From a virus (taxonomy: Duplodnaviria > Heunggongvirae > Uroviricota > Caudoviricetes): a stretch of DNA of 64,000 bases. The notes under the pieces are model-generated. The model was not told where the DNA came from. It searched no databases and saw only the letters and a list, made by a program, of their open reading frames with translations. This document shows, one piece after another, positions 5,548-46,049 of this stretch. The DNA lies in IMG/VR virus record IMGVR_UViG_2737471844_000002, positions 10,565 to 74,564 of that record. One strand, written 5' to 3'. How positions within the stretch are numbered: the stretch's first letter is position 1; the number at the start of each line of letters is the position of its first letter. The position numbers and the translations under genes are program-made.

Positions 5548-5552
5548 TGGTC

Positions 5553-7887: not shown

Positions 7888-7908
7888 TTTTTTTGAAGGT
7901 CTGACACA

Positions 7909-8115
7909 GTGAGCATTATCAGATTTACAGAATGCGCAGGTTCAGGGAGCACCAGCGCTGTCATGGTAGTCGCTGAACGCATCACCCATTTTTACCGTCA
8001 GTGTGGTGCATATGGTGGCACGATCATTGAGCTGGATACCGGGAAAAACGTGTATGTTCTTGAAAATCCCGACAAAGTTAAATGCCTGATTGAACAGGCT
8101 CAGAAGGTCACTTAA
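7909..8115 (+). CDS. hypothetical protein
   Basis: 68-aa ORF. Confidence 0.3.
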   Translation: MSIIRFTECAGSGSTSAVMVVAERITHFYRQCGAYGGTIIELDTGKNVYVLENPDKVKCLIEQAQKVT

Positions 8116-8615: not shown

Positions 8616-8661
8616 CCACAGCGGCCCGGTTTTCCGGGCCGTCTGATATTCGGGATTTGTA

Positions 8662-9402: not shown

Positions 9403-9403
9403 C

Positions 9404-11044: not shown

Positions 11045-11047
11045 TTA

Positions 11048-14344: not shown

Positions 14345-14499
14345 ATGGCCAGAAACGCGCTGTAATCGCCTTTGACGACATAAACGCCTCACGGATGAGG
14401 CATTACAGCACCGCACCCCATAAATGCCGTCAGAATCGTTTTTAAAAGGGTTTTAAAAACGGTTTTATTTCCCCTTTTATCCTTTCGCGTTATGGCAGG

Positions 14500-14523
14500 G
14501 TGCTGAACACCCTCCACAGTACC
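14500..14523 (+). promoter_or_regulatory. conserved late-operon element, copy 2 (upstream of head protease gene)
   Basis: gtgctgaacaccctccacagtacc in the 200-bp intergenic region after G. Confidence 0.45.
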
Positions 14524-14544
14524 CCGTGTTCCCCTTCCGTCATC

Positions 14545-15669: not shown

Positions 15670-16065
15670 ATGGATCGCAATACCCCCTACCGTGACGGCG
15701 AACTGAACCCGGTGCCGGTTGCCGCTGCGACCGAAATTTTTGGCGGTCATATGGTGGCCGTTAACGCCTCCGGTTATGCCGTTCCGGCCAGTGCCACGGC
15801 CTCACAGATTACGCTGGGCGTGTCTGATGGCTGGGTGGATAACAGCAAGGGCAGCGATGGCGACGCCACCGTTCTGGTGCGTTGCGGCAAAGCCTTTCTG
15901 ATGGCGAACAGCACCTCAGATCCGGTCACGCAATCGCAGGTCGGCAAGCTGTGCTACGTGGAAGACAGCGTGACCGTGGCAAAAACCGACAACAGCAGCG
16001 CCCGTCCTGTCGCCGGGAAAGTGATCGGCATCGGTGACGATGGCGTCTGGGTTCATTTCAGTTAA
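15670..16065 (+). CDS. hypothetical head-associated protein
   Basis: 131-aa ORF between protease and major head genes. Confidence 0.35.
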   Translation: MDRNTPYRDGELNPVPVAAATEIFGGHMVAVNASGYAVPASATASQITLGVSDGWVDNSKGSDGDATVLVRCGKAFLMANSTSDPVTQSQVGKLCYVEDSVTVAKTDNSSARPVAGKVIGIGDDGVWVHFS

Positions 16066-29430: not shown

Positions 29431-30005
29431 TGACTTTTAAAATGAGCGATAAAGCACGGACCATGCGTGTATTTAATTTTCTTGAAGATACAAAAGAATT
29501 TATCGGCAGTGGTGACGCTTATATACCGCCTCATACCGGATTACCCGCAAACTGTACGGATATTGTACCGCCGGAAATTCCCGAAGGTTTTACGGCAATG
29601 TTTGATACTGCTGACAATTCATGGCGTCTGGTAGAAGACCATCGGGGGGAAACAGTTTATTCAACGGAAACCGGAAATGCAGTCCCGATATCTGAACTGG
29701 GGGAACTTCCTGAAAATGTCACATTTATTGCACCAGACGGAGAATACCAGCGCTGGGATGGCAGTCAGTGGGTGACGGATGAAGAGGCGAAGCGTGATGC
29801 GCTGATTAATCAGGCGGCAGAAAAGAAAACCAGCCTGCTGAAACAGACTGGAGAACAAATCGCAATCTTACAGGATGCTGTTGATTTTGGTGAAGCAACA
29901 CCAGAGGAACAGGAGCAACTGACAGCCCTCAGAAAATTACGAATAAAGTTAAATCGTATTCAACCGGAAAATGCACCAGATATCGACTGGTCAGACTTTG
30001 AATAA
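29430..30005 (+). CDS. tail fibre assembly protein
   Basis: 191-aa ORF; homologous to the P2-like G product at 53588-54187 (shared [14 protein letters not shown] motif). Confidence 0.7.
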   Translation: MTFKMSDKARTMRVFNFLEDTKEFIGSGDAYIPPHTGLPANCTDIVPPEIPEGFTAMFDTADNSWRLVEDHRGETVYSTETGNAVPISELGELPENVTFIAPDGEYQRWDGSQWVTDEEAKRDALINQAAEKKTSLLKQTGEQIAILQDAVDFGEATPEEQEQLTALRKLRIKLNRIQPENAPDIDWSDFE

Positions 30006-30050
30006 ATTCCACAGCCGCCAGCAGGCGGCTTTTTATCATTCAGAGGCTCT

Positions 30051-31475
30051 ATGTCTGTATTAATTTCAGGGGCGCTGATTAATGGCGCTGGCGTTCCGAT
30101 GGCGGAATGCAAAATTTATTTAGATGCACTGGTTAATACCAGTGAAGTGGTCACTGAGTCATTTGCGGTTATTGAAACCGATGCGGCGGGACAGTATGCC
30201 TTTGAAGCACAAAAAGGCAAATACACCGTACACATCAAGCAAAAGAACGGCCCCAAGTGCTGCGTGGGTGACATTTCGGTTTACGACGACTCAAAGCCCG
30301 GCACGCTGAACGACTTTCTGACTGCCCTTGATGAAAGCGATTTAAAGCCGGATGTAGTGAAACGCTTTGAGGAACTGGCGCAACAGGCACAGCAGAGCGC
30401 GGAAGCCGCCGCTGGCAGCGAACAACAGGCAGGACAACACGCCACTGATGCACAGCAGATTAAGGCCGACTGTCAGGCGCTGGCGAAAGACGTACAGCAG
30501 AACGCCGACGCGGTTGCGGAGGGTAAACAACAGGTCGAAAATCTGGTCTCACAGGTTGAGAATGCCGCCGAGGAGGTAAAAAAGGACGCTGAAGCTGCTA
30601 AACAGGCCGCATCTGATGCAGAGCATGTCAGGGAGGATATTGACACCGCGTTATCTGCGACACTGAAAACGGCGAATCGTTTATCAGAGCTGGCTGATGA
30701 AGGTGAAGAGGCTCAGCAGGAATCCCGTGATAATCTTGGACTGAAAAGCGCTGCCACAATGACGCCACAGAGCGACATTCGTGACCGGACTGAAGGTCGT
30801 CTGGCGACACCTGGCGCATTTGGTTTTGGGCATATTTTTTTGCCCGCAGAGCGGATCCGTTTTAACACAGAGGATGATTTTCTGTCCTGGGTAAGGAATG
30901 CGACGCCGGGTGAATATTTTGTTGAGGGTGGCAGTAAAATCATATCCGGAGGTGTGTTGTTTAACGGGGTGGTCAGCATCCGGTGGGTTGAGGCACGCAA
31001 TAATCCACCGGAACCGCGATATACATCAAAGGCCATTATTTTCTACGGTATCAATGGCGATGTTTATTACAGCCGCTACTGGACAACAGGTAATGGTTAT
31101 CTGACTGGCTGGGAAAATCTGAAAATTACCTCACAGGACATTATCTCTCTTCTGTCCGGTATTGCTCCCGGTACCACGGACGGCTGGTACGGTGCAGGCA
31201 GTCTTGTACTGGCGGCTTATAACGGTAAGGGAGACGCAGACACCGACCGCCGGATAAAACGCGGTTACAGCTATCCGGGGTCACGCCTGAGCGCGGTTGA
31301 ATTTATGTGTCACGGCACGACCGGTAGCGGGGTTGGATATAACGGCAGCGTTTCCGTATATGTGCGGAGTTCTGGTGGTGGTATGCCGGGGTCATATCGG
31401 GCACTGTCAGGTGATGGGCTCGGGTCTGCCGGGTCAGCCAGTGTCATGATTGGTTTGTTCATACGTATTGCGTAG
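30051..31475 (+). CDS. side tail fibre protein (Phage_fiber_N / Stf-like)
   Basis: 474-aa ORF; N-terminus resembles lambdoid side-tail-fibre N domains, followed by an Ala/Gln-rich coiled segment. Confidence 0.65.
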   Translation: MSVLISGALINGAGVPMAECKIYLDALVNTSEVVTESFAVIETDAAGQYAFEAQKGKYTVHIKQKNGPKCCVGDISVYDDSKPGTLNDFLTALDESDLKPDVVKRFEELAQQAQQSAEAAAGSEQQAGQHATDAQQIKADCQALAKDVQQNADAVAEGKQQVENLVSQVENAAEEVKKDAEAAKQAASDAEHVREDIDTALSATLKTANRLSELADEGEEAQQESRDNLGLKSAATMTPQSDIRDRTEGRLATPGAFGFGHIFLPAERIRFNTEDDFLSWVRNATPGEYFVEGGSKIISGGVLFNGVVSIRWVEARNNPPEPRYTSKAIIFYGINGDVYYSRYWTTGNGYLTGWENLKITSQDIISLLSGIAPGTTDGWYGAGSLVLAAYNGKGDADTDRRIKRGYSYPGSRLSAVEFMCHGTTGSGVGYNGSVSVYVRSSGGGMPGSYRALSGDGLGSAGSASVMIGLFIRIA

Positions 31476-31482
31476 GTGTTTT

Positions 31483-32049
31483 ATGGAAATAAAACGCATC
31501 GAAAATGCGCGTTATCTTGAAAATGGCGCGATTGACTGCGGGGTGTTGTTTGATGGCATGGATGAACCGGTTCCGTATACGGCAACTGCCACGGATACAG
31601 CAGAGACAGGGCAGCGAGTCTGGCAGGAGCTGCAAAGTGGGAGATGGGGAGAAATAACGCCGTTCACCGTCACGCCAGAGATGCTGGAAGCAGCAAAAGC
31701 AGCCAAACGCCGGGAAATTGAAGCATGGCGCACAGAACAGGAGGCGCAGCCATTCATTTTTGAATGGAACGGCCATAGCTGGAACGGGGGACCGGATTCT
31801 ATGGCCCGTCTTTACCCGGTGGTGATGTCAGCAAAATCAGTCACGGCACGGAAATCTATGGTATGGGGTGATGCGGAAAATCAGCAGGTAAAGTTGTCAA
31901 TGCAACAACTGGATGAACTGCTTACTGCAATGGTTCAGGCGCAGGTCGATCGCAATGACGAGATTTATCGCCGTCAGCGGGAGATGAAGGAAACACTGGC
32001 GGGGCTGGATGACCTGAACACCATCAGAAGTCTGCCCATCAGTGAATAA
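31483..32049 (+). CDS. tail fibre assembly protein (Tfa-like)
   Basis: ATG 31483 within track ORF 31450-32049; Tfa-like sequence character. Confidence 0.6.
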   Translation: MEIKRIENARYLENGAIDCGVLFDGMDEPVPYTATATDTAETGQRVWQELQSGRWGEITPFTVTPEMLEAAKAAKRREIEAWRTEQEAQPFIFEWNGHSWNGGPDSMARLYPVVMSAKSVTARKSMVWGDAENQQVKLSMQQLDELLTAMVQAQVDRNDEIYRRQREMKETLAGLDDLNTIRSLPISE

Positions 32050-32062
32050 AAACGTAAGTGGT

Positions 32063-32142
32063 CAAATAAAGTGCTGTATCACCTTATTTTGCGCTTTATT
32101 CTGGATTTTTTTTATTATGTCAACCGTTCAAAATAAAGCGCT
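32063..32142. repeat. three AAATAAAGYGC motifs in alternating orientation at the Mu-like / P2-like junction
   Basis: caaataaagtgc (32063), gcgctttatt on the complementary strand (about 32091), caaaataaagcgc (32128); AT-rich 130-bp intergenic region. Confidence 0.3.
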
Positions 32143-32183
32143 AAATAGTCCAGAAAAAATCGCGAAGTTACACACGCGGCGCG

Positions 32184-34727
32184 GTGGATGAAGCCATGGC
32201 CTCGCTGCGCCTGCTGCCGTCCTATCTGCGCGATCCGCTTATTCGCCACCTCTCCTTCCTTCGCAAAAAACAGGAAGCCGATCGCCGGAAAGGCAAAAAG
32301 AGCTGGCAGGCGGAACGCTATGCACGCGGAACCCTGCGCAAAATATTCGAACGTCTGGATCGCACTGACGGACGCTGGCTGACACCGGGTTATCGCTCCC
32401 TTGCCGGACGCGAACGCCTGGACGATTTGCTTTACCTGCCGCAGCTCAACAAACACCAGATACAGACGTTGGCCACCATGACGGCGGCGATGTTCAGCAG
32501 CACCTTCGAAAAGCTCTGCGATGGCTTTGGCGCCAGAGATGGCGAGCTGACCATGGATGTAATGTTGAAGGCTTACCGGATGCTGGCTCGTATCGCATTA
32601 CGCCTGCACATCATGCCGCCACATTACGAAGCCCTGAACAAGAGCGAACCGGATACGGAACTGCTGCCGGGCGCAATCCTTCGCCTGACCTGTGCGGACT
32701 GGTGGAAACGCAAACTGTGGCTGTTACGTTGCGAGTGGAGAGAAGAACAACTCCGCGCCGCCTGTCTGGTTTCCAGAAAAACATCGCCTTATCTGAGCCA
32801 GGACGCGTTAAGCGAGTTTCGCGCACAGCGCGAGAAAACACGCGATTTCCTGAAAAGTTTCATGCTGGAAAACGAAGACGGGTTCACGATTGATCTCGAG
32901 ACAGTGTATTACGCGGGAGTAAGTAACCCGGTTCACCGTAAGGCAGAAATGATGGCCACCATGAAGGGGCTGGAACTTCTGGCCGAAGCCCGTGGTGACA
33001 AAGCGGTGTTTCTGACTGTCACCTGCCCGTCAAAATACCACGCAACAACGGAGAACGGTCATCCGAATCCCAAATGGAACGGGGCCACCATGCGCGACTC
33101 CAGCGATTACCTGGTTAACACGTTTTTTGCGGCGGTCCGCAAGAAACTGAACCGCGACGGCCTGCGCTGGTATGGCATCCGCACGGTGGAGCCTCACCAT
33201 GACGGCACCGTGCACTGGCATATGATGGTCTTTGCCCATCCGGAAGAAATCGACACCATTGTGTCCCACACCCGCGATATTGCCATTCAGGAAGATCGTC
33301 ACGAGCTGGGCGATGATATTACTCCGCGCTTTAAGGCGGAGTATGTCGACGGCTCAAAAGGCACGCCAACCAGCTACATCGCCACCTACATCGGAAAAAA
33401 CCTGGACAGCCGCGCCGTGGATGGCATCGCCCCGAAAACAGGCAAACCACGCGTTGACCACGAAACCGGAAAATCAATGGCCGAGAGCGTGGAGCGCGCC
33501 ATCGGCTGGGCGCGCCTTCACCGGGTCCGCCAGTTCCAGTTCTTTGGCATCCCCTCCCGTCAGGTGTGGCGTGAACTGCGCCGCCTTGCCAGCCAGATGG
33601 CACGCAACCCGGAAGGCCCGCAACGGCTGAAGGACGACGCAATGGATGCGGTACTCGCTGCCGCTGATGCCGGGTGTTTTGCCTCCTACATTGAAAAACA
33701 GGGTGGCGTACTTGTTCCACGCAAGGACTACCTGATTCGCACCGCCTACGACCTCGCAGATGAGCTGAACGATTACGGCGAACAGAGCGTACAGATTTAC
33801 GGGATCTGGTCACCACTCATCGGGGAATCCTCCCGTGTGTGCACGCACCCGGATAACTGGAAGCTGGTAAGACGTAAACCGGAAGCGGAAGACAGCGCCC
33901 GCGAAAATTGTTTTGACCTTCAGGGCGGCCCTGCCGCCCCTTGGACTCGTGGCAATAACTGTCCCCGTGTACAGGAAACGGACAACAACGGGACAGAACA
34001 GCCGGAAGAACGGCCAGCACCGTGGCCGCAGCTTCCTGACGGCGTTGATGTGGATGAATGGATGCGCTCACTGAAACGGCACGAACGCCGGGCGCTGATG
34101 CGTTCGCTGCGTGACAAACAGGCCAAAAACAGCAGTGATGAAATGCAGAACTGGACACAGAGCCGCAAACAGCCACAGCCTTTGCCTGATAAACACGAAT
34201 TACTCGCTAAAGAATGGCGGGAGTCTGCCGAATCTCTCGGCCTGCATATCGGTGAACAGCAGATGCAGCACCTGTTACGGGGCGGCAGCCTGTACGTTGA
34301 CGGCAGCATCATTGCACCGCAGGGATTTGAAATTGTACGCAAACCGGATACCCGCCCGGACAGCCGAATCACGCAGCTCTGGCAGCGCCTGAGCCGTAAT
34401 CACGGCGTAAGCAGCACGGAGATCCGCCATAACCCGGTCGCCAGCTATCTGGCACAGCTCGGGGCATCAGACCCCGAAGCCGCCGCACGCCTGGCATCCA
34501 CACTTCAGCAGGACCAGAACACCATGAAAACACCCGTTACCGTGCTTTCTGACATGCTGCGCGCCATTCGTGACGCAGAGCACGCACAGAGAATCAGTGA
34601 AACCACTGAACACGCCCGCCGCAAAGCAGACCTGCTGCGGGGTAGCCTGACCAGTGGCAACAAAAAACAGACAGAAACGGGATTCACAAATCCCGCAAAT
34701 GAGCAAAAAACGCGCCGCGATATATGA
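32184..34727 (+). CDS. A: P2-type replication initiation endonuclease gpA
   Basis: 847-aa ORF (GTG 32184 or ATG 32196); contains the rolling-circle initiator signatures VEPHHDGTVHWHMM and YIATYIGKNLD (paired Tyr). Confidence 0.8.
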   Translation: MDEAMASLRLLPSYLRDPLIRHLSFLRKKQEADRRKGKKSWQAERYARGTLRKIFERLDRTDGRWLTPGYRSLAGRERLDDLLYLPQLNKHQIQTLATMTAAMFSSTFEKLCDGFGARDGELTMDVMLKAYRMLARIALRLHIMPPHYEALNKSEPDTELLPGAILRLTCADWWKRKLWLLRCEWREEQLRAACLVSRKTSPYLSQDALSEFRAQREKTRDFLKSFMLENEDGFTIDLETVYYAGVSNPVHRKAEMMATMKGLELLAEARGDKAVFLTVTCPSKYHATTENGHPNPKWNGATMRDSSDYLVNTFFAAVRKKLNRDGLRWYGIRTVEPHHDGTVHWHMMVFAHPEEIDTIVSHTRDIAIQEDRHELGDDITPRFKAEYVDGSKGTPTSYIATYIGKNLDSRAVDGIAPKTGKPRVDHETGKSMAESVERAIGWARLHRVRQFQFFGIPSRQVWRELRRLASQMARNPEGPQRLKDDAMDAVLAAADAGCFASYIEKQGGVLVPRKDYLIRTAYDLADELNDYGEQSVQIYGIWSPLIGESSRVCTHPDNWKLVRRKPEAEDSARENCFDLQGGPAAPWTRGNNCPRVQETDNNGTEQPEERPAPWPQLPDGVDVDEWMRSLKRHERRALMRSLRDKQAKNSSDEMQNWTQSRKQPQPLPDKHELLAKEWRESAESLGLHIGEQQMQHLLRGGSLYVDGSIIAPQGFEIVRKPDTRPDSRITQLWQRLSRNHGVSSTEIRHNPVASYLAQLGASDPEAAARLASTLQQDQNTMKTPVTVLSDMLRAIRDAEHAQRISETTEHARRKADLLRGSLTSGNKKQTETGFTNPANEQKTRRDI

Positions 34728-34768
34728 AGCGCGCACAAAACAGGCGAAAGCGGGATTTAAAAATCCCG
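34677..34768. promoter_or_regulatory. two CGGGATT-N4-AATCCCG palindromes (candidate ParR centromere/operator)
   Basis: cgggattcacaaatcccg at 34677-34694 and cgggatttaaaaatcccg at 34751-34768, just upstream of parM. Confidence 0.35.
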
Positions 34769-34803
34769 TAAACGGTTAATTAACCAACATAAGGAAAATC
34801 GAC

Positions 34804-35763
34804 ATGAAAATTTGTATCGACGACGGCTCCACCAACATCAAGCTGGCATGGACTGAAAACGGCGAACGCCGCAACGCCATCAGCCCGAACAGCTTCAAGT
34901 CGGAATGGTCTGCGCCGTTCGGTGGCTCGCAGCCTGCGAACTACATGCTTGATGGCGTGCGCTATGGTTTTGATCCGGTCAGCGATCGCTTTGTCCAGAC
35001 GACCGACACGCAATACCAGTACAGCGATGTGAATGTCATTGCCATTCATCACGCGCTGGTCAAATCAGGCATCACGCCACAGGAAGTGGATGTTGTTGTC
35101 ACCCTGCCACTGAGCGAATATTTCGACACTAACGCCCAGCCGGACATGGCCAACATCAACCGCAAAAAAGCGAACGTTATGCGCCCGGTGGAGTACCAGA
35201 ACGGTGAGGCATTCACTATCCGTAACGTGCGGGTTATGCCTGAATCCATTCCGGCTGGCTTTAAGGCACTGGCTGACATGAGTCCGTTTGAATCCCTGCT
35301 GATTGTGGATTTGGGCGGAACCACGCTGGATGTGGCAAAGGTTCAGGGGCAACTGGCAGGTATCAGCCAGGTGTTTTGCGATCCACACGTAGGCGTTTCT
35401 CTGATGGCCGATGCCGTACTGTCGGTGATGGCCACTAACGGTATGCGCACCAGTCACCACATAGCCAATACCATTATCGAACATCGCCATGATGAAGCCT
35501 GGCTGCGCCAGCACATCCACAATGACGCGCATTACGCCAGCCTGATGGCGGTTATTCGTGAAAAGGAAGAAACACTGAAACAACGTGTTATCCGCGCGCT
35601 GGCGGTTTTTTCGGGTTACGGGCGGGTGATGGTTGTCGGTGGAGGGGCGGAGATTGTGGCACCCGCTATCCGCGAAGCCTGCGGAGTTAATGCGACTTTC
35701 ATCGCGGACGGGGTGCCACAGTTTGCTCTGGTTAATGGGCTGTACGCAATGGACAAGGAGTAA
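34804..35763 (+). CDS. parM: ParM/StbA actin-like segregation ATPase
   Basis: 319-aa ORF; strong resemblance to plasmid R1 ParM (MKICIDDGSTNIKL, YSDVNVIAIHHAL, LLIVDLGGTTLD). Confidence 0.8.
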   Translation: MKICIDDGSTNIKLAWTENGERRNAISPNSFKSEWSAPFGGSQPANYMLDGVRYGFDPVSDRFVQTTDTQYQYSDVNVIAIHHALVKSGITPQEVDVVVTLPLSEYFDTNAQPDMANINRKKANVMRPVEYQNGEAFTIRNVRVMPESIPAGFKALADMSPFESLLIVDLGGTTLDVAKVQGQLAGISQVFCDPHVGVSLMADAVLSVMATNGMRTSHHIANTIIEHRHDEAWLRQHIHNDAHYASLMAVIREKEETLKQRVIRALAVFSGYGRVMVVGGGAEIVAPAIREACGVNATFIADGVPQFALVNGLYAMDKE

Positions 35764-35767
35764 ACCA

Positions 35768-36079
35768 ATGACGACTCCAACCAGACGGATAAGTTTCTAT
35801 CTGAAGCCCACCGCCGTCAAGAACGAAGGAGAAGCATGCGCCTGGCTGGACAGCCTTACACCAGAAGCCCGCAAAAGCGGCCAACGCGTGGCTTTTCTGG
35901 CCGGGCTGGCACTTCTGAAAATGAATCCGGCAGAGGCTTACCGACTGGCTGCATGGGCTGATGATGAGGTGTTATCAGTGACACAAACCAAGACAGAACG
36001 CCCCGCGTCACAGCCAGTATCAACCGCACAGATAACCAGTCAGATGGCCGGAAATATCCGGGCGTTATTTCCTGAATAA
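35768..36079 (+). CDS. parR: ParR/StbB-like partition adaptor
   Basis: ATG 35768 five nt after the parM stop; 103-aa product with N-terminal RISFYLKP...LDSLTPEARKSGQ pattern resembling R1 ParR. Confidence 0.5.
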   Translation: MTTPTRRISFYLKPTAVKNEGEACAWLDSLTPEARKSGQRVAFLAGLALLKMNPAEAYRLAAWADDEVLSVTQTKTERPASQPVSTAQITSQMAGNIRALFPE

Positions 36080-36122
36080 CATCAGGGCGTATTCGCCCTG
36101 CCACCAATCCCATAACATAAAG

Positions 36123-36152
36123 AACGGGGTGCAAATCACTATGCACCCCGTT
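36123..36152. promoter_or_regulatory. 11-bp perfect inverted repeat
   Basis: aacggggtgca, 8-nt loop, tgcaccccgtt; in the AT-rich gap between parR and the ATPase gene; no T-run follows on the plus strand. Confidence 0.3.
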
Positions 36153-36457
36153 CCAATACAAACCATCAGAAGATCTACACATCTTTCTCAAATGGCCAAG
36201 TAATCGAGCTGGTTCAGGAATAAGCAGGCTGCCAACACAAGTGAAGGAGATAAAACTGTAGAACTGATCAATCGTTGGAAACAAGTATTGACAGTATGTT
36301 CGAGTAACCCAACTGGATAGATTTTATGCTGATTATCCATACAGTAAAAAAGTGAGGATACTCTTTGAATTACGCCAGCAAGAGTGGTAACATTAGTCAA
36401 TGATTTTCATTAATGTAGTTACCAGCTTACACAAGCTGATGTTTTATTGGGGGTTTT

Positions 36458-37540
36458 ATGGTAAACGTGAGGGAGGATGAACTTTTCAAACTCATCGAGC
36501 AAGGCATCAAAGGCAACGCAAATGCATTTACACTCCTATGCAGAAAGATGATTAACAACATCCGTAAAAATGATGAGGCTTTAGCTTCTAAGCTGGCTTC
36601 GTTAGTTGCTGAGGGAACAGTATTACGTGGGGCATCTAGTAAGGCTCCTATGCCTGTGGATGGAGACTCCAGACGAAACCTTTTGCAGGAAACATCTGTC
36701 AACGCAATTGTTGAAGAACCTGTATGGAATACGGATATCTCAAAGAAGCTGGAGTCAATTGTTAACGAAAGAGAGAATGCGGTTTCTTTGTTCAAAGCTG
36801 GTCTTGAACCTGTGAAGACGGTTTTACTTTCTGGCCCGCCAGGCGTAGGCAAAACAATGTCCGCACATTGGCTTGCTGCAAAGTTAAATTTACCTCTTTT
36901 AACATTGGATCTCTCATCTGTAATGAGTTCTCTTTTGGGAAAAACAGGTAATAATATTAAATCCGTTATGGATTATGCCAAAGAGAAACCATGTGTCCTT
37001 TTGCTTGATGAATTTGATGCTGTTGCAAAAAGACGTGATGATGACAGGGACGTTGGAGAATTAAAACGTTTAGTTACTGTACTCCTACAGACCATAGATG
37101 AGTGGCCAGCGACCTCGCTTCTTGTTGCTGCGACTAATCACCCTGATATCTTAGATCCGGCTGTTTGGCGTCGATTTGAGCACATCCTTAAATTTAATAT
37201 GCCATCAGTAGAACTGATAGATAGATATTTAGTCAATCATAATATTGAACCTGAACTATCTAAAAAACTTGCACCATTATTAGATGGCATGTCCTTTGCC
37301 ATCATTAACCGTATTTTGAATTTCTCCAAAAAGAATGAGGTACTTAGAAATATTCCATTTGAAAGCTCATTAATAGAAGCCGTAATTACGGAGAGGGTTT
37401 CATTGGATGAGTTTAGCGATAATGATCTCAATATAATTAAATATCATTTTGACGGTTTTTCAAATAGGAAGATAGCTGAATTAGTTGGTGTTTCACATCC
37501 AACAATCGCGAATAAATTACAAAAGTGGGGGATTAAATGA
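36458..37540 (+). CDS. AAA+ ATPase with C-terminal HTH domain
   Basis: 360-aa ORF; Walker A GPPGVGKT, Walker B LLLDEFD, sensor/Arg-finger region ATNHPDILDPAVWRRFE; C-terminal GFSNRKIAELVGVSHPTIANKLQKWG helix-turn-helix; AT-rich. Confidence 0.8.
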   Translation: MVNVREDELFKLIEQGIKGNANAFTLLCRKMINNIRKNDEALASKLASLVAEGTVLRGASSKAPMPVDGDSRRNLLQETSVNAIVEEPVWNTDISKKLESIVNERENAVSLFKAGLEPVKTVLLSGPPGVGKTMSAHWLAAKLNLPLLTLDLSSVMSSLLGKTGNNIKSVMDYAKEKPCVLLLDEFDAVAKRRDDDRDVGELKRLVTVLLQTIDEWPATSLLVAATNHPDILDPAVWRRFEHILKFNMPSVELIDRYLVNHNIEPELSKKLAPLLDGMSFAIINRILNFSKKNEVLRNIPFESSLIEAVITERVSLDEFSDNDLNIIKYHFDGFSNRKIAELVGVSHPTIANKLQKWGIK

Positions 37541-39741
37541 TGGAAAGGAACTTACTTTTAGGTAACGGTCATGTTCTGACAAAAAAGGAACCTTTGCCTA
37601 AAGGAAGGGATGGTAAGCGCTATCCCTATACTCTTGAAGAAGTAAGGGAGCATTTAAACCCAGAGATTGATACTTTACTCTCACGCTTTCGCAGTTTGGA
37701 TGATGCGGCTAAGCCAAGGGGGGAGAGTGTATTCAATTTAACTTTACACCCAGCGTTTTTGGGTAAAAGCTACTTTCCGGAAGGATTGCTTAGAGCGACA
37801 GGTTTACGGGATGTCGGTAGCCGTCAGGTAATCATTCGCCCACGGAAAGCGGCACGTCAGTGCGATCAGAATAAGGACTTAGTAACGGCGCAACTGTTTG
37901 TTAGCGGTGATGATGATGCCGTTATAAGATTTAAGGAAATTTTAAATTCCCCTACAGCTCCGAAGGGCGTACAAAAGGATTTGATCGAAATTGAAAGTGT
38001 TAGCTTTTTTGAAGGAAAAGAGAGAGCACGCAATTTTGAGCATGCGAAAAGTGATTTGATAAAATTTGAAGTGGTTCTTCATGCTGGGGTTGAAGACGAT
38101 GATATCGTTAAAGCCTATATTAGCTATGCGGCACAATATGATGTCTCTGTTGATTACAAAAGTAGAATCCAAGTTGGTGGGCTGACTTTCATCGTTGCAC
38201 ACGCGCGACCTGAAGATATGAAAAAAACACTCGATTTTTCATTAATCCGCGTTGTGCGGCCGATGCCGTCTCTCAGGTGTACTCAGCCGAACATTGTCAG
38301 AAAGTTATCTAATATAGTTACACCGGAGCTCCCTAATTCTAAAGCTGTTCTTGAATCCGAACGTATTGCCATTTTTGATGGTGGCTTGGGGACAGCTGAC
38401 TTGAGTAATTGGGTTACGGAATACGTGTATCCAGACACCAAAGAAACAAGCGGATTATTATTGCAGCACGGTAATGAAGTGACATCCACTTTCTTATTCG
38501 GACGTGTCGAGGAAAATGCACCTTCTTTTAAAAGACCGTTTATGAATGTAGATCATTATAGAGTTCTTTCACCGACATCAGGTGACAATGGCAATTGGGA
38601 TTTATTTGATGTCCTTAAGAAAATACAGTCCGTTCTTGATAGTGGTGACTATAAGTTCGCTAATCTAAGTATTGGTCCTCATCTTCCAATTGGTGATGAT
38701 GAGGTTCATGTATGGACTGCTGTTTTAGACCAAATCTGTGCTAAGCATGGGATATTACTTACTGTTGCTGTTGGGAATGATGGCAATGAGGACGGTGATG
38801 CAGCGAGAATACAACCTCCTTCCGATATGGTAAACGCGCTAGCGATTGGTGCTGCTGATCGTAGCGGTGAAAAATGGGGGCGGGCACCATATAGCTGTAT
38901 TGGGCCAGGCAGAAGCCCCGGATTCGTTAAACCTGATGGTGTTATTTTTGGTGGAAGCGACGACGAGCCTTTTTACACTTACAACCCTCTGCTTGGTTCT
39001 ATAGTTGGAGTTCAAGGAACCAGTTATGCCTCTCCATTAGCATTGAGAACGGCCGCTGGAGTTGCGGCTCTATCAGGAACTCCATTGAACACCATTGCAT
39101 TGAAAGCGTTGCTTGTTCATCATGCTGAAACATCAAGAAAATATTCGCGTGAACATATCGGTTGGGGACGGTTTAGTGAGGATCCTAACGTTTTAATCGA
39201 TTGTCCAAATGATACTGCTACAGTAATTTACTATGGTTCATTAGCAAAAAATAAATATTTAAGGGCACCGATCCCATTCCCTGATGTTCCCTTTGACGAA
39301 GCATTTGAGCTTACCGCTACTTTATGCATTCAAACCCCAGTAGATCCTGAACATTCAGTAAACTATACAAGGGCCGGTATGCAGGTAACTTTCCGCCCAA
39401 GATTCGGCCTTGACGATACCGATACAGATGATTTCTTTGGTCAAAAAAGCCAGTATAAGACTGAAAGGGAGTGTAGGAGTGAAGGTCATAAATGGGAAAC
39501 TTGTTTGCACAGAAGCAAAAAGTTCAGTGCTGATACATTATTAAGCGATCCAGTTTTTGATATACGGTATCATGCCCGAGATTCTTCGCGCCATGTTAAG
39601 GGAGTTTCAGCCCCTGATATGCAATATGCGATGGTAATAAGCGTAAGGGTAAAAGACTTTGATTTATATAATGTTATTCGCCAGCGATATACAATTCTGA
39701 ATCCTATTCAACTGCGCACACAAATTTCTCTCGACACGTAA
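37537..39741 (+). CDS. S8 subtilisin-like serine protease with N- and C-terminal extensions
   Basis: 734-aa ORF with ATGA overlap to the ATPase gene; catalytic triad motifs IAIFDGGLG (Asp codon 38377-38379), LQHGNEV (His codon 38467-38469), GTSYASP (Ser codon 39022-39024) in canonical D-H-S order and spacing. Confidence 0.8.
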   Translation: MMERNLLLGNGHVLTKKEPLPKGRDGKRYPYTLEEVREHLNPEIDTLLSRFRSLDDAAKPRGESVFNLTLHPAFLGKSYFPEGLLRATGLRDVGSRQVIIRPRKAARQCDQNKDLVTAQLFVSGDDDAVIRFKEILNSPTAPKGVQKDLIEIESVSFFEGKERARNFEHAKSDLIKFEVVLHAGVEDDDIVKAYISYAAQYDVSVDYKSRIQVGGLTFIVAHARPEDMKKTLDFSLIRVVRPMPSLRCTQPNIVRKLSNIVTPELPNSKAVLESERIAIFDGGLGTADLSNWVTEYVYPDTKETSGLLLQHGNEVTSTFLFGRVEENAPSFKRPFMNVDHYRVLSPTSGDNGNWDLFDVLKKIQSVLDSGDYKFANLSIGPHLPIGDDEVHVWTAVLDQICAKHGILLTVAVGNDGNEDGDAARIQPPSDMVNALAIGAADRSGEKWGRAPYSCIGPGRSPGFVKPDGVIFGGSDDEPFYTYNPLLGSIVGVQGTSYASPLALRTAAGVAALSGTPLNTIALKALLVHHAETSRKYSREHIGWGRFSEDPNVLIDCPNDTATVIYYGSLAKNKYLRAPIPFPDVPFDEAFELTATLCIQTPVDPEHSVNYTRAGMQVTFRPRFGLDDTDTDDFFGQKSQYKTERECRSEGHKWETCLHRSKKFSADTLLSDPVFDIRYHARDSSRHVKGVSAPDMQYAMVISVRVKDFDLYNVIRQRYTILNPIQLRTQISLDT

Positions 39742-39748
39742 TTTTTAT

Positions 39749-39771
39749 GGCCGCGAAAGCGGCCTTTTTTC
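39749..39771 (+). terminator. rho-independent terminator
   Basis: ggccgc gaaa gcggcc hairpin followed by tttttt, 8 nt after the protease stop. Confidence 0.6.
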
Positions 39772-40077
39772 TGTAATTTTTTTATGAATTTACATGCACG
39801 ATAGTGCACAAATTTGCACAATTTTTTTGAACGAATTTTTGCCCTTCTGGCCCGCGTGGCGGCTGGATCCGTCAGGGATCCGTGCGTGCACAAAAAAACG
39901 CGCTTTTTCTGCGCGCAGGTGACGGGGGAACAGCCCGCGTTTCAGGGGGTAAATAGCATTCCCTGAACGATGTCGCAGCGACACAACAGAATGGCTGTAT
40001 TTCTCACGCTGAACGTGAAAAAGGCGTGAGGGATTCTGATTTGATGGGGTGAAAGGTAAGGCCGTCAAAATCGCACT

Positions 40078-40096
40078 GAGGCGGCGAAGAACATGC
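40078..40096. other. candidate P2-type cos site
   Basis: gaggcggcgaagaacatgc resembles the recalled P2 cohesive-end sequence and lies in the expected position upstream of Q. Confidence 0.3.
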
Positions 40097-40193
40097 AGTC
40101 AACGCGGTGGGATTGCGTAAAAGTCTGACCGCCGATGATGGCAATAAGCAGAAAAGCGTCGTGAAATTATCTGATTGATACAGGAGCTGGAGA

Positions 40194-40222
40194 GCCGGGG
40201 CATAAATTTTTTATGCCCCGGC
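40194..40222 (-). terminator. hairpin downstream of Q (possible terminator)
   Basis: gccggggcata aatttttt atgccccggc inverted repeat about 25 nt beyond the Q stop. Confidence 0.35.
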
Positions 40223-40246
40223 GAAGCAGCAGACAAGCGAAGCGCG

Positions 40247-41293
40247 TCAGGATGTGGGCTGGGTATCTAACAGTGCGTAAGGGTTAAAGCGGATCACCTC
40301 TTCGCCAAGCCAGTCATTGATGTGCTTCATGGCCTCCATGACGGGCATCAGCTCGTTAATTGCGTAAACCCGCGCGGCCTTCTCCACATCACCAAACGCA
40401 CTTTTTTCACCCGGCATCGCCCCCATCAGTTGCGGCGGAACGCGGTGCGCAGCCAGCACATCATCACGGGATGCCGCCTTAACATTCATGAACTCATCCT
40501 TTGCGGTGATCTGCTGGAACGGCAAAATTTGCACACCTTCTTTGCCACCGTTGGGCGCATGAATGAGCACGTTTTTAAATGCACCACCACCACGCGCACC
40601 CTGTAACGTTTCTTTCAGGGAGTCCATGCTTTCGCGGTTTACCTGCGCTGCACCGATGTAGATGATGCACCCGGCGTGGGATCCGTTGTCGTAATACAGT
40701 TTTCTGAACATGTCCGCCGAATGAGACAGGCTGGCCGAGAGTAATGCGCCGAGATATTCCGGCATGCCGTAGATTTCCTGGTTAATGTCAGGATTCATCA
40801 GGTGGCACACTTTGCCAGGGCGAAACTGAAACGCATCCTTGCCATCCTGCACATACCACCATGATTCAAGATCGCTTCCGCGTCGCATGTATTTCGCCAG
40901 GGCGTGCCGTAATTTAAGCGGTTCGCCGAGCATATTGCTTCGAAGCTCAAGGAATGCGTTACCGAACACAAACCAGTCCAGCGCCAGCGCCGAGAAATCC
41001 TGCCGGGAAAGCAGCGGGTGCGGAATATAGCAGCCGAGCAATACATTGCGCTTAAAGTAAAGCGCAGACTGATGCCAGGACGTTTGCCGGGCAGCTCTTG
41101 CCAGACCGTACCAGTCCACCGGGGTTTCATACCACCGCCCGTTATCAGCACAGTACATATTGTCCAGCAGGTCATGCCCGGTCAGGCGATAAGGACCATC
41201 AAATGTGAATGCACTGAGCGATGATTCTTTCCTGAGCGCATCAGCGAGATCAATGCGTGAACTCATGCGCACTTTTTTATTTTTTCTGCTCAT
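40247..41293 (-). CDS. Q: P2-type portal protein gpQ
   Basis: 348-aa ORF; start codon overlaps the P stop (ATGA); P2 Q-like sequence and position. Confidence 0.8.
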   Translation of the reverse strand: MSRKNKKVRMSSRIDLADALRKESSLSAFTFDGPYRLTGHDLLDNMYCADNGRWYETPVDWYGLARAARQTSWHQSALYFKRNVLLGCYIPHPLLSRQDFSALALDWFVFGNAFLELRSNMLGEPLKLRHALAKYMRRGSDLESWWYVQDGKDAFQFRPGKVCHLMNPDINQEIYGMPEYLGALLSASLSHSADMFRKLYYDNGSHAGCIIYIGAAQVNRESMDSLKETLQGARGGGAFKNVLIHAPNGGKEGVQILPFQQITAKDEFMNVKAASRDDVLAAHRVPPQLMGAMPGEKSAFGDVEKAARVYAINELMPVMEAMKHINDWLGEEVIRFNPYALLDTQPTS

Positions 41294-43044
41294 CAGAACT
41301 CCATAACCGTGAAACGCTCGTTTTCTCCTTCGCCGCCAATCGGTTCGTTAATGACAGCAAGCATGGTTGCCCACGCAAGGTCGCCGTGGCTGATCCCCCT
41401 CGCGCGGTCCGTTTCGTAAGTGATAAAGCCGCCCGGTGTTTTCACCTTACGCACGGCGTTAAAGGCCGCGACCAGCTCGCGTTCGGCGCGATCGTATTCC
41501 CAGCGCCCGGCACGCATTATTTGCAGCATTTTCAGTACCAGCGACCGTTTTGATGACAGCGTGAAGGTGTACGGAATAGCAGCAGGGAAAAACCGTTTCA
41601 CTATCTGATAAACAGCCTCCCCGTTCCCGCCCGTCACATCAATGCCGATGTGTTCCACGTTGTAGCGACACGTGAACTCTTCAATGACTCTGGCCTGTTC
41701 TTCAAACTCCAGCCCCTGAACGCGTCGCGTCTCCACCGTTCGAAAACGGCCACCAGGAACAGCCGGAGGAACCACCACGGACAAAGCGCCGCTGTCGCCG
41801 TTGCCACTGCTGCCGTTTGCGTCATACCCAATCCATACCGGACGATTCCCCATCGGGCGGGGAGCAAAAGGTTTCCAGTCTTTCCAGTCGTCGTATCCGT
41901 CAACACCGCAGCCAATCAGGATATTCAGGTTAAATGCCGATTCCCCTTCGCGGACAAACTCACACATATAGAGATTGAGGAACTCGTCTTCGGTGTTTTC
42001 ATCACGAATTTCGTCGATATCGGTGTGTTTCCAGCCGTGATTAACCACATCTTCCAGCGTGACAATTTGCCGCCATGTCCGGTCAGGGCAGATAAGCCCG
42101 TTATGCAGCGTTTTCCAGTCCACAAAAAAACGCTGGCGTTTATGCGAGGCCTTTTTCTCGTTCCAGCGGTCGCCATTCCAGTAGGCGTATGCCTCGTGCG
42201 TTTCGGTGGATGGCGTGGAGAAGTAGGTGCGCCGCAGTCCGCTGAGGGTTGCCATAGCGCCAGCCACCTTGCGCAGTTCAGCAAAGCGACTGACCCAGAA
42301 AAATTCATCAAAATAAAAATTGCCCGTATAGGACTGTGCCGACGCAGCAGAAGTGCCGAGAAAATGCAGCTCTGCGCCGTTGGAGAGGATGATTTTATCG
42401 CCCCCTTTCAGCTCCACATCAACTTCAGCCGCGGCCTTCTGAATAATGCTTTTAAACTGGAACGCCTGACGACGCGACGCAGACAAAAAAATCTGGTTAC
42501 GCTGGTAAGGTTGCGCCACATCGTCACGCAGCGCCATCAGCAGCGCTTCCTGTGCAAAATACCAGGTCGCCCCAATCTGTCGGGATTTCAGGATCATCCT
42601 GTTACGTATCCCGGCTTCCCTGCAAAGGGTCAGGGAGTCAAACCAGCCCCGCTGATGCCACTCCAGCCTGCTGATGATTTTTTCCCGCAGTGCGGCAATC
42701 TGTTCCGGCGTGAAATGATTTTTGAGTTTTTTCGCCCGGCCTTTCTTTCCTGCGGCCATCACATCCGGCTGGCCATCATGCAGCTTTTTAAGCTGCCGGG
42801 TCAGCAGGTCTATTTCCTTAAAGTCACCGCCTGTTTTATTCTGTTTTTCAGTAAGCTGGATGAGGCGCGCATCGATGGACTGCGTGACACGCTGCACGGG
42901 TGGCGTTTCATCCCACTGGTCGCGTTTTTTCCACGCATAAATCGTGTTCGGGTTTATTCCCATCAGACGTGATATTTCTGCGGGCGGATAACCCTGCCAG
43001 TAAAGTTGCCGCGCACGCTGGCGCACAAAAGCGTCCTGAATCAT
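41293..43044 (-). CDS. P: P2-type terminase ATPase subunit gpP
   Basis: 583-aa ORF; divergent from O as in P2. Confidence 0.85.
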   Translation of the reverse strand: MIQDAFVRQRARQLYWQGYPPAEISRLMGINPNTIYAWKKRDQWDETPPVQRVTQSIDARLIQLTEKQNKTGGDFKEIDLLTRQLKKLHDGQPDVMAAGKKGRAKKLKNHFTPEQIAALREKIISRLEWHQRGWFDSLTLCREAGIRNRMILKSRQIGATWYFAQEALLMALRDDVAQPYQRNQIFLSASRRQAFQFKSIIQKAAAEVDVELKGGDKIILSNGAELHFLGTSAASAQSYTGNFYFDEFFWVSRFAELRKVAGAMATLSGLRRTYFSTPSTETHEAYAYWNGDRWNEKKASHKRQRFFVDWKTLHNGLICPDRTWRQIVTLEDVVNHGWKHTDIDEIRDENTEDEFLNLYMCEFVREGESAFNLNILIGCGVDGYDDWKDWKPFAPRPMGNRPVWIGYDANGSSGNGDSGALSVVVPPAVPGGRFRTVETRRVQGLEFEEQARVIEEFTCRYNVEHIGIDVTGGNGEAVYQIVKRFFPAAIPYTFTLSSKRSLVLKMLQIMRAGRWEYDRAERELVAAFNAVRKVKTPGGFITYETDRARGISHGDLAWATMLAVINEPIGGEGENERFTVMEF

Positions 43045-43198
43045 TGCTCCCCCTGAGTCATTACAGGAAGATTACCCGCGCGCGAAACCGTTCTCCTTAA
43101 CCCCCTGTTCTGGCCGTTTTCTTACAACAAAAGCCCTTTGTATCAGCCTGTTACGCTTTGCCATCATGACTGAAGAACCAGTCAGAGGGGCAAAAACT

Positions 43199-44035
43199 AT
43201 GGCTAATGAAAAAAAGACATCCCGCAAAAAGTTTCGCGTGGCTGTCTCCGGATCAACTGTTGATGGCCGCGAAATCAGCCCGGTACATCTGCGTGAAGCC
43301 GCCGAGAACTTCAACCCGGATGTTTACGCTGCCCGCGTGAACGTTGAGCACTATCTCTCGCCATGCCCGTCAAGCGAATTTTCCGCAATGGGCGATGTCA
43401 CCGCGCTGAGTACGGAAGATATTACGGAAGGCCCGCTGGCCGGACGTACTGCGCTGTATGCAGAAATCGAACCGACCGAGCGCATGAAGCAGCTTGTCGC
43501 TGACGGCAAGAAAATCTATTCCAGTATCGAACTGCACCCGCAGTTCTCCGTTAACGGGCGCGCCTATCTGGTCGGGCTGGCGATGACCGACACCCCGGCA
43601 AGCCTGGGCACTGAGCGCCTGAAATTTACGGCACAGCAACGTCAGGCGGTGATGACGTTCAACAGTGTCCAGGGTGAAGCACCGCTTATCTCCGAAGCCA
43701 TCGAGTCTGAAATCATCGAAATGGCAGAACAACGCCAGGAAGAAGGCACCCAGTGGTTTAACCGCGTAATGGGGATTATTGGTCGTGGCCGCAAAGCGGA
43801 TGGCGCCAGTTTCTCCCGTATTCAGGAAGCGGTGGAAGGTGTCGCAACGTCACAGGCCGACATTATCGACCGTTTTAATGTGCTGGAAACCCGCCATCAG
43901 CAGGACAGCCAGAAAATCACTTTACTGACCACAGAGCTGGCAGCACTGAAGGAAAAACTGCGCACGCAGGACGGCGATCCGCAGAACCGGTTCACCGCAA
44001 CAGGTGCAGCCTCCGACCAGCTGGCTGACTTCTGA
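43199..44035 (+). CDS. O: capsid scaffolding protein gpO
   Basis: ATG 43199 with gagggg SD upstream (track ATG 43166 is an alternative); 278-aa product close to P2 gpO length. Confidence 0.75.
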   Translation: MANEKKTSRKKFRVAVSGSTVDGREISPVHLREAAENFNPDVYAARVNVEHYLSPCPSSEFSAMGDVTALSTEDITEGPLAGRTALYAEIEPTERMKQLVADGKKIYSSIELHPQFSVNGRAYLVGLAMTDTPASLGTERLKFTAQQRQAVMTFNSVQGEAPLISEAIESEIIEMAEQRQEEGTQWFNRVMGIIGRGRKADGASFSRIQEAVEGVATSQADIIDRFNVLETRHQQDSQKITLLTTELAALKEKLRTQDGDPQNRFTATGAASDQLADF

Positions 44036-44058
44036 TAAGACAAAGGAGCAAATTTTTT

Positions 44059-45111
44059 ATGAATCTGGTGATGTCAGATATTACCCGCAACAAGCTGGGT
44101 TGCTATATGGCGCAGCAGGCGTCGCTTAATAATATCCCGGTTTCCGCACTGGTATCGCGATTTACCGTAGAACCCTCGGTGCAGCAGCGTTTTGAAAACG
44201 CCTCAAAGGAAAGTACCGAATTTACGAAAAGAATTAACGTGATCGGCGTGACCGACCAGAAAGGCGAAAAAATCCTCCCGGATACCACAGGACCGATTGC
44301 GCGCACGAATACCAGTTATGACGGCACAAAACGCCGTAACCCGAATAACGTGGTTGATCTGAAAAACCGCAAATACCAGTGCGAACAGGTGAACTACGAC
44401 ACGTTTATTTCGTATCCGCAGCTTGATGCCTGGTCGGCACACCCTGATTTTCAGTCCCGCATCAGCGCACAGATTGCCCGACAGGTGGCACTTGACCGCA
44501 TCATGATCGGTTTCAACGGCACGTCTCACGCGGATGAGTCCAACTTCAGCACCAACAAGTTGCTTCAGGACGTTAACGTGGGGTGGCTGGAGCACATCAG
44601 AACCGACGCCAGCGAACGCGTTATGAATGACGTGACGCTGACCTCCCGTAACATGGACAACACCGTGGCGCACGCGGGTAAGTATGCGAACGCTGATGCA
44701 CTGGTACAGGACGCGCGCTCATCCCTGCTGGATGAATGGCACAAGGAAGCTGACGACCTCGTGGTGATTATGGGGCGCAACCTGTTTAACTCGCTGCGTC
44801 TGCCCGTGCTGAACAGCATCAGCGGCCAGAATCCCAATGCGGAATTACTTGCCGGGCAGCTCATTCTGTCATCGCGCACCATTGGCGGTCTGGGCGTGTT
44901 CCTTGCGCCGTTCTTCCCGGATTCAACGATGCTGATCACCTCGTTCAACAACCTGTCGATTTACTGGCAGAAAGGTTCAATGCGTCGTCTGATGAAAGAT
45001 GAACCGGAATACAACCGCATCGCCACCTACCAGTCCATCAATGACGCTTATGTCGTTGAAGACTATGGCAAGTGCGCGATGGTCACTGGCCTGAAGTTCG
45101 CCGACAGCTAA
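44059..45111 (+). CDS. N: major capsid protein gpN
   Basis: 350-aa ORF with aaaggag SD; strong resemblance to P2 gpN (FTVEPS..., FNGT..., LQDV.VGWL...). Confidence 0.8.
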   Translation: MNLVMSDITRNKLGCYMAQQASLNNIPVSALVSRFTVEPSVQQRFENASKESTEFTKRINVIGVTDQKGEKILPDTTGPIARTNTSYDGTKRRNPNNVVDLKNRKYQCEQVNYDTFISYPQLDAWSAHPDFQSRISAQIARQVALDRIMIGFNGTSHADESNFSTNKLLQDVNVGWLEHIRTDASERVMNDVTLTSRNMDNTVAHAGKYANADALVQDARSSLLDEWHKEADDLVVIMGRNLFNSLRLPVLNSISGQNPNAELLAGQLILSSRTIGGLGVFLAPFFPDSTMLITSFNNLSIYWQKGSMRRLMKDEPEYNRIATYQSINDAYVVEDYGKCAMVTGLKFADS

Positions 45112-45156
45112 TCAACTCACGGCGGGCATCATGCCCGCCTGTAACGGAGAGAAAAA

Positions 45157-45957
45157 ATGATTACTCCTGCACAGCAACACTGGCAGAACGTGATGGCACA
45201 GCGCGCAGGCCGGGCGAATGAAGGCGTGGACCACGCCGCGCGTACCGCGCATGAAGAGGTGCTGTATCGTCTGCGTCTGGCACAGGCCCGGCTTAAGGGC
45301 GTACAGGCCAGAAGCGCCAAAGCCGCCATCAAAAAAGAGTTGTTGCCGGACTTTTCCGGCTGGATTGAGGGAACACTGGAGGCTGACGGCGGGCAGCAGG
45401 ATGAAGTGATTGCCACGCTGATGGTGTGGGCGATTGACTGCGGCGATCTTCCGCTGGCGCTGCGTATTGGTGCATATGTGGTCCGTCACAACCTCATCAT
45501 GCCGGATAACTTTGGACGTACTGCTGCTACGGTACTGACCGAAGAAATCTGCAACCCGGTACTGACGCAGGCCGGGACGGATGCCGACGCGGATTTGTCC
45601 GCCTTTATCGAACCACTGGATACCCTCCGGGAGATTGTCGCCGACCAGGACATGCCGGACGAAGTGCGCGCCAAATTATGCAAGGCGTGCGCCTTTGCCC
45701 GCCGTGGCCTGACCGATGCGGACAGCATGGCCTCATCACTGAAGCTGCTGCGCGAAGCGATGCACCTGAACCCGAACGCAGGTGTGAAACGCGAGATTGC
45801 AACCCTTTCCCGCGCTCTGAAAAAAGCCGATTCCGCAGCCGCACCAGAAGATGCCAGCACACCGCAGGCGCAGGACGAAAGCAGCAAAAGTAAAAAGACA
45901 ACGCGGAAGCCTGCAACACGAAAAACCACCGCGACGCAGAAGGCGAAGCGCGGTTAA
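45157..45957 (+). CDS. M: terminase endonuclease (small) subunit gpM
   Basis: 266-aa ORF; shares MPDEVRAKL... and AGVK.EI... blocks with P2 gpM. Confidence 0.75.
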   Translation: MITPAQQHWQNVMAQRAGRANEGVDHAARTAHEEVLYRLRLAQARLKGVQARSAKAAIKKELLPDFSGWIEGTLEADGGQQDEVIATLMVWAIDCGDLPLALRIGAYVVRHNLIMPDNFGRTAATVLTEEICNPVLTQAGTDADADLSAFIEPLDTLREIVADQDMPDEVRAKLCKACAFARRGLTDADSMASSLKLLREAMHLNPNAGVKREIATLSRALKKADSAAAPEDASTPQAQDESSKSKKTTRKPATRKTTATQKAKRG

Positions 45958-46049
45958 CGACTGACCCCGTCAGCGGGCGGCGTGCGCGGTGTTCCGGTTT
46001 GACTCCGTGACCGTTTACACCGCGCACCCACCGCCCGATTTTTTCAGGA

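Follow-up and report, generated by a model that had tools for sequence, protein, structure and literature searches.

An IetAS-family ATPase-protease cassette carried as exchangeable cargo by a P88-like prophage, a probable toxin-antitoxin abortive-infection module

On the Ti plasmid pTiC58, IetAS reportedly acts as a stability and incompatibility toxin-antitoxin (TA) system, a description that is said to go back to Yamamoto et al. in 2009. The family was first described as a TA pair with a protease toxin and an ATPase antitoxin, as cited in PMC13069673. For SgiAT of Salmonella Genomic Island 1 (SGI1), SgiT kills Escherichia coli in 30 minutes and SgiA rescues the cells; the pair stabilizes SGI1 in the presence of the IncA/C plasmid, and from its own promoter it causes no post-segregational killing (PMC5006074). 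Activity against phages has been reported for ietAS of Bacillus cereus m1293, an abortive-infection system that the SPbeta phage protein YosG turns toxic (bioRxiv 10.1101/2022.08.27.505566), and for the ietHAS variant, whose defence requires an intact protease active site and in which cloning of an ietA mutant failed (PMC13069673). Published surveys already list ietAS on E. coli prophages. Here we analyse a pair of this family, ietA and ietS, in a 64,000-nucleotide (nt) stretch of viral DNA (positions 10,565 to 74,564 of IMG/VR record IMGVR_UViG_2737471844_000002; the whole stretch is referred to below as the window). The host prophage is a P88-like peduovirus of the P2 family (genus Xuanwuvirus). 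We read the cassette as a two-gene TA abortive-infection module, carried as exchangeable cargo in a variable slot of this prophage, with a probability of roughly 75%.

The two genes were located as follows.

36458 to 37540, plus strand: ietA, AAA+ ATPase (putative antitoxin), 360 amino acids (aa)
37537 to 39741, or from the conserved ATG at 37540, plus strand: ietS, S8 subtilase (putative toxin/effector), 734 aa or 733 aa

Both products matched the corresponding PADLOC profiles, IetA over residues 7 to 356 (PDLC02196, profile positions 5 to 370 of 374, E = 3.6e-89) and IetS over residues 22 to 707 (PDLC02197, positions 24 to 718 of 749, E = 6.6e-41), and with both profiles matched the pair falls under the PADLOC definition of IetAS. 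Full-length alignment with a pair on the Agrobacterium plasmid pAtG3_79a, C-terminal helix-turn-helix (HTH) included, gives identities of 40% for IetA and 37% for IetS. The ATPase gene precedes the protease gene, the two being adjacent and co-oriented, and homologues keep this order and the coupling. These comparisons identify IetA and IetS as full-length homologues of the IetAS family and agree with the original prediction, made from the letters of the window, that an ATPase and an S8 protease form an IetAS-like anti-phage module. The Pfam AAA (E = 9.6e-31, IetA) and Peptidase_S8 (E = 4e-17, IetS) matches argue against a chance pair of open reading frames (ORFs); the prediction had proposed searches with both of these families. 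A regulator of the TRIP13 type, as in cyclic oligonucleotide-based antiphage signaling systems (CBASS), was considered and rejected, the TRIP13 profiles being weak (4e-13) against 3.6e-89 for IetA; no HORMA or cyclase genes were found near the cassette. In the PHROG collection the two proteins belong to phrog_3757 and phrog_3964, both listed as "unknown function."

The pair forms a compact unit of 3.6 kb that includes its own promoter-like region and terminator. The reading frames of 360 and 734 aa and the ATGA overlap of the ietA stop with the ietS start at 37537 to 37540 (AAATGATGG) are present as predicted. The homologous genes overlap by a single nucleotide (TAATG) in Yersinia and Limnobaculum, and in Chromobacterium the stop is adjacent to the start; the ietS starts of all three align with the second ATG of the window, at 37540, and the closest IetS homologues are 733 aa long. 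Since the homologue starts match this second ATG, 37540 is probably the conserved start, giving a protein of 733 aa. Whichever start holds, the arrangement of the reading frames marks ietA and ietS as translationally coupled, and the layout of the unit as co-transcribed. The operon ends in the terminator that had been proposed for it.

39749 to 39771, plus strand: intrinsic terminator of the operon, GGCCGC-GAAA-GCGGCC followed by TTTTTTCT (-13.7 kcal/mol, z -3.69)

The hairpin with its T-run reads GGCCGCGAAAGCGGCC. An Rfam scan of 35900 to 40400 gave as its sole match a sub-threshold Histone3 stem-loop (32 bits against 34); this match, at 39724 to 39769 on the minus strand, falls on the terminator hairpin of ietS and was taken as a chance resemblance. 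A 70-aa minus-strand ORF at 36188 to 36400 was likewise set aside as spurious: RefSeq does not annotate it, and the upstream regions in Yersinia and Limnobaculum are too short to hold it. Some database entries list a 375-aa IetA that matches all 360 residues of the window protein at 100% identity. Such a form is impossible here, since the upstream ATG at 36413 is followed in frame by TAG; it probably stems from different annotation in other contexts.

IetA consists of an N-terminal three-helix bundle (aa 6 to 52), a conserved PVDGDSRR linker, a classical-clade AAA core, a lid, and a C-terminal HTH. The Walker A motif GPPGVGKT (36833 to 36856) was confirmed by translation; Walker B is LLLDEFD (36998 to 37018), and the second region of homology (SRH) is ATNHPDILDPAVWRRF, reading AVWRRF. 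Walker A, Walker B and SRH are invariant in 33 homologues, with the Walker A lysine K132, the Walker B residues D184/E185 and the arginine fingers R238/R239 all unchanged. The loop VMSSLLGKTG, which is without the usual aromatic residue, is also invariant in these homologues, except for Lys162, which is nearly so. The predicted structure (predicted local distance difference test [pLDDT] score, 77) comprises the N-terminal three-helix bundle, the AAA core with its lid, and a three-helix HTH at the C terminus; the nearest folds are FtsH, Rix7, PAN, spastin, VAT and Vps4.

37418 to 37525 (aa 321 to 356), plus strand: C-terminal HTH of IetA, part of ietA

The Pfam HTH_50 match in the window protein (residues 335 to 359) is borderline, and most IetA homologues have a precomputed HTH Pfam match. 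Residues G333, S335, R337, I339, A340, H347, P348 and T349 of the HTH are invariant across the 33 homologues, so that the suggestion that this domain might be distinctive did not hold.

IetS has a subtilase core with the catalytic residues in the expected motifs, AIFDGGLG (Asp281), QHGN (His311) and GTSYASP (Ser496), all of which, like GPPGVGKT in IetA, translate as the original prediction had it.

38350 to 39171 (aa 272 to 545), plus strand: IetS catalytic domain, the subtilase core
38377 to 38379, plus strand: Asp281, catalytic triad
38467 to 38469, plus strand: His311, catalytic triad
38776 to 38778, plus strand: Asn414, the oxyanion Asn
39022 to 39024, plus strand: Ser496, catalytic triad

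All four residues are invariant in 35 homologues. As judged by these alignments, the catalytic residues of both the ATPase and the protease are all intact and invariant within the clade. Pairwise identity is about 59% (IetS) and 72% (IetA) in the catalytic cores, and lowest in the N-terminal half of IetS (about 40%) and in the IetA lid (about 34%). Modeling of the IetS extensions, a check the prediction had called for, gave a confident structure (pLDDT 83.5; predicted template modeling score, 0.87). It places two beta-alpha-beta-beta-alpha-beta modules, of the propeptide/I9-like kind, at aa ~61 to 245, followed by an Arg-rich linker (aa 246 to 271) and, beyond the core, a C-terminal beta-sandwich (aa 546 to 734). 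These extensions are not peculiar to the window, as had been supposed they might be: IetS has more than 870 homologues, and nearly all of the full-length ones among the 120 matches listed are about 730 aa long. Searches of the PDB by sequence and by fold returned nothing closer to IetA or IetS than generic p97/FtsH or subtilisins.

The cassette lies downstream of the gene for replication protein A (Pfam Phage_GPA) and upstream of the portal gene. These flanks had been predicted correctly; the parM (StbA) and stbB (parR-like) partition genes at 34804 to 36079, between gene A and the insert, had been missed. These two genes were considered as odd cargo in their own right, and rejected as such: they are backbone of P88-like phages, found in P88 and related phages as well as in 1307 (24%) of the 5426 complete E. 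coli genomes, almost always on the chromosome. The insert itself stands out from this backbone.

36130 to 39787, plus strand: insert in the variable slot relative to the P88-like backbone, AT-rich cargo (blastn breakpoints, GC content)

In blastn comparisons with P88 and phage 520873, homology stops at 36129/36079 and restarts at 39788/39795. GC content is 0.36 to 0.46 across positions ~36000 to 39750 and ~0.52 to 0.58 in the flanks (40% GC for the insert overall), a drop in line with the AT-rich insert described at the outset. Where the window carries IetAS, between stbB and the portal gene, P88 has four small ORFs and phage 520873 a single one. Otherwise collinear relatives thus differ in what they carry here, which makes the slot a genuine variable hotspot, and it is the equivalent of the P2 tin/old position. 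The original prediction had placed the cassette in that hotspot, and the assignment is upheld by the varying content in P88 and 520873 and by the same cassette in phiT5282H, Yersinia and Limnobaculum. System and type of hotspot are thus both known already, and PADLOC recognizes the pair.

The cassette is 99.9% identical in 34 of the 5426 complete E. coli genomes, chromosomal every time. Beyond this species, Enterobacter phage phiT5282H carries it likewise between gene A and the portal gene.

36197 to 39939, plus strand: segment common to phiT5282H at 95.8% identity, comprising the exchanged cassette and the right-hand anchor at 39788 to 39939

The flanking backbone of phiT5282H is ~70% identical to the window or unalignable, and parM/stbB are absent from it. 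Prophages of Yersinia (81% protein identity) and Limnobaculum (78%) have relatives between GPA and the portal gene, and the same slot in other P2-like phages holds relatives at 41 to 81% identity. Of 37 IMG/VR loci with IetS relatives (37 to 100% identity), 18 are flanked by GPA on the upstream side and/or by portal and terminase genes on the downstream side. Outside P2-like phages, the pair adjoins Tn7-like genes in Chromobacterium (56% identity) and resides on a plasmid in Plesiomonas (85%). The homologies thus indicate that the cassette transfers between diverged P2-like phages and other mobile elements. Because relatives occupy the same slot and also occur on a plasmid and next to Tn7-like genes, these data identify the cassette as mobile cargo with a long association with the P2-type hotspot.

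Several observations concern the surroundings of the cassette. About 150 bp downstream of the terminator (39788 to 39939) are common to the window, the P88-like phages and the otherwise diverged phiT5282H; this stretch may be a conserved anchor for recombinational cargo exchange, or part of a region near cos. It contains a terminator-like hairpin on the minus strand (39916 to 39898). In E. coli A1 (NZ_CP029328.1) the same prophage has an IS66-family element in the portal gene (12167 to 15920 of the locus); this copy is defective yet retains the IetAS cassette. Two P2-like IMG/VR contigs have the portal gene ~3.4 kb past ietS (7196 to 10554), and so hold additional cargo in the slot. The Agrobacterium pAtG3_79a pair (locus 523 to 6603) is bordered on one flank by a gene for a caspase-family protein and on the other by DUF3223 and Tn3 transposase genes, surroundings that may represent a small defence island.

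Upstream of ietA, two candidate control elements were found.

36365 to 36393, plus strand: candidate sigma-70 promoter, with -35 TTGAAT (36365 to 36370), a 17-nt spacer and an extended -10 TGgTAACAT (36385 to 36393)
36385 to 36464, no strand assigned: candidate operator of the IetA HTH, three TGGTAA/TTACCA hexamers at 36385 (plus), 36419 (minus) and 36459 (plus)

The promoter was read from the sequence and lies below the 9-of-12 threshold of the consensus scan. Of the five upstream regions that were aligned, four (window, phiT5282H, Yersinia and Limnobaculum) keep its -10 block, GTGGTAAnATT, and the Chromobacterium region has TATAAT at that position; a downstream TTACCAG element is also common to the aligned regions. 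All three hexamers lie within 80 nt, the first overlapping the -10, the second inverted, and the third over the ietA start codon, with just five more copies in the other ~15.8 kb of the scanned interval 30001 to 46000. In 19 non-identical ietA upstream regions there are 27 copies, against 3.1 ± 1.6 in dinucleotide shuffles (maximum, 8 in 300) and 1.55 expected from how often the hexamer occurs elsewhere in those loci, a 17-fold enrichment; these statistics come from related sequences, which overstates their independence and counts against the operator. The clustering is seen in several deep clades, and a sister P2-like clade has TGGT(A/T) copies at about -124, -103, -51, -29 and -8, with a spacing of ~21 bp. 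A palindrome at 36423 to 36438 (CAGCTTacacAAGCTG) is retained in phiT5282H through paired changes; as an RNA hairpin it is insignificant (z -0.32). The TGGTAA cluster may be the operator of the IetA HTH, and because the sites cluster at ietA promoters, the HTH could serve in autoregulation, as in type II antitoxins.

By analogy with the characterized pairs, IetS would be a cytoplasmic subtilase, toxic by itself, that the AAA+ ATPase IetA neutralizes. A phage protein would then switch the system to toxicity, the freed IetS would cleave essential proteins, and the infected cell would die or arrest before phage release, aborting the infection. IetA may work as a hexameric remodeller of the classical AAA+ clade that imposes an ATP-dependent latency on IetS; the propeptide-like N-terminal domains of IetS may themselves keep it latent; and the HTH may bind the promoter-overlapping TGGTAA sites and autoregulate the operon in the manner of type II antitoxins. 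We put forward as tentative, and rather doubtful in its entirety, a tighter version in which IetA sits on the TGGTAA sites as a DNA-bound, probably hexameric autorepressor, IetS is a self-inhibited zymogen, and a phage cue acting on IetA frees the protease and de-represses the operon simultaneously.

Several points weigh against the abortive-infection reading. When first described, the founding members were credited with stabilizing plasmids or islands, not with defence. The mechanism of IetAS "remains unknown" (PMC13069673), and the E. coli ietAS that has been tested, that of ECOR52, is a different variant that gave limited protection alone; identity with it had been considered for the window pair and was rejected, and the ECOR52 system is regarded as a different variant because the primers with which Wu et al. 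cloned ietAS have no match in the window, even at 3 mismatches. Identity to the ietAS pair of E. coli E24377A, the only other E. coli ietAS compared with the window, is 31% (IetA) and 22% (IetS). Finally, the only specific NCBIfam matches, IteA_antiphage (NF042959) and IteS_antiphage (NF042956), fall short of the equivalog cut-offs (253.1 bits against 510 and 115.7 against 900). The E24377A and Agrobacterium pAtG3_79a pairs are likewise below these cut-offs and, because these other pairs also fall short, the equivalogs appear to cover one narrow clade of a deep family; in this comparison the window pair belongs to a deep clade separate from that one.

The best-surviving alternative is that the cassette is mainly an addiction module, stabilizing the prophage by post-segregational killing, with any anti-phage effect incidental. 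It has the history of the family behind it, first defined as a Ti plasmid stability and incompatibility TA system. The stabilization of SGI1 by SgiAT with the IncA/C plasmid present (PMC5006074) also fits, as do the parM/stbB maintenance genes of the host phage lineage. Even so, we consider this explanation unlikely: SgiAT itself does not bring about post-segregational killing from its own promoter (PMC5006074), relatives protect against phage by abortive infection, and the slot turns over between related phages, like defence cargo. Moreover, most P88-like prophages lack the cassette (1307 genomes with parM/stbB versus 34 with the cassette). Addiction and defence are not mutually exclusive roles.

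That the two proteins form a protease-chaperone pair for phage morphogenesis or housekeeping, required in the phage's own life cycle, is very improbable. Proteases and ATPases are indeed known from phages, and in GenBank the phiT5282H record calls the ATPase "FtsH," but P88, 520873 and most P88-like prophages do without the pair and keep the usual GPO scaffold/protease; its composition is foreign, plasmids and a Tn7-like element carry the same pair, and the Pfam scan of IetA found no FtsH metalloprotease domain. Nor can a secreted subtilase virulence factor acquired by lysogenic conversion, SubA-like and with an accessory ATPase, be given any real weight, the match to SubA being the shared S8 core alone, with no B subunit, no signal-peptide-like hydrophobic stretch at the IetS N terminus (MMERNLLLGNGHVLTKKEPLPKGRDGK), and ietS always paired with the AAA+ gene.

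Read as an abortive-infection module, the cassette mostly confirms known biology, namely that P2-family prophages carry defence cargo beside the portal gene, IetAS among it. As a 3.6-kb clade native to E. coli and its phages, found in the same slot across several genera, it offers a convenient model for the trigger, target and control of IetAS, and the predicted propeptide-like domains of IetS and the candidate TGGTAA operator provide two directly testable hypotheses.

Among described systems, the ietAS of Gao et al. 2020 (IteA/IteS_antiphage) and that of B. cereus m1293 are of the same family and have the same gene pair; the window proteins differ from the former in scoring far under its equivalog cut-offs (253/510 and 116/900 bits). 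The ietHAS system of E. coli E24377A (SNF2-ietA-ietS; PMC13069673) has homologous AAA+ and S8 proteins, also in E. coli, but adds an SNF2 helicase gene; its IetA (326 aa) lacks the HTH, and its IetS is 795 aa long. The E24377A trio (locus 2030 to 12793) lies directly upstream of a type III restriction-modification (RM III) methylase and helicase, an arrangement that agrees with the reported co-localization of ietAS with RM III and with the ietHAS variant. A literature search for recent mechanistic work on IteS/IteA returned nothing relevant. SgiAT (S026/S025 of SGI1) likewise pairs an AAA+ antitoxin with a subtilase toxin of the same family, and PADLOC surveys label it ietAS; unlike the prophage cassette, it is carried by an integrative mobilizable island and has been studied for island maintenance. 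With the P2 tin/old cargo, the insert shares a slot of variable content that follows the early replication genes and precedes portal gene Q, and differs in carrying IetAS instead of Tin/Old and in having parM/stbB between gene A and the slot. The Agrobacterium IetAS is carried by a plasmid, whereas the present pair sits in a P2-family prophage hotspot, and identity is 37 to 40%, as measured on the pAtG3_79a pair, a homologue of pTiC58 IetAS; across that distance, this plasmid pair has the gene order, an HTH at the C terminus of IetA, and extensions at both ends of IetS in common with the cassette described here.

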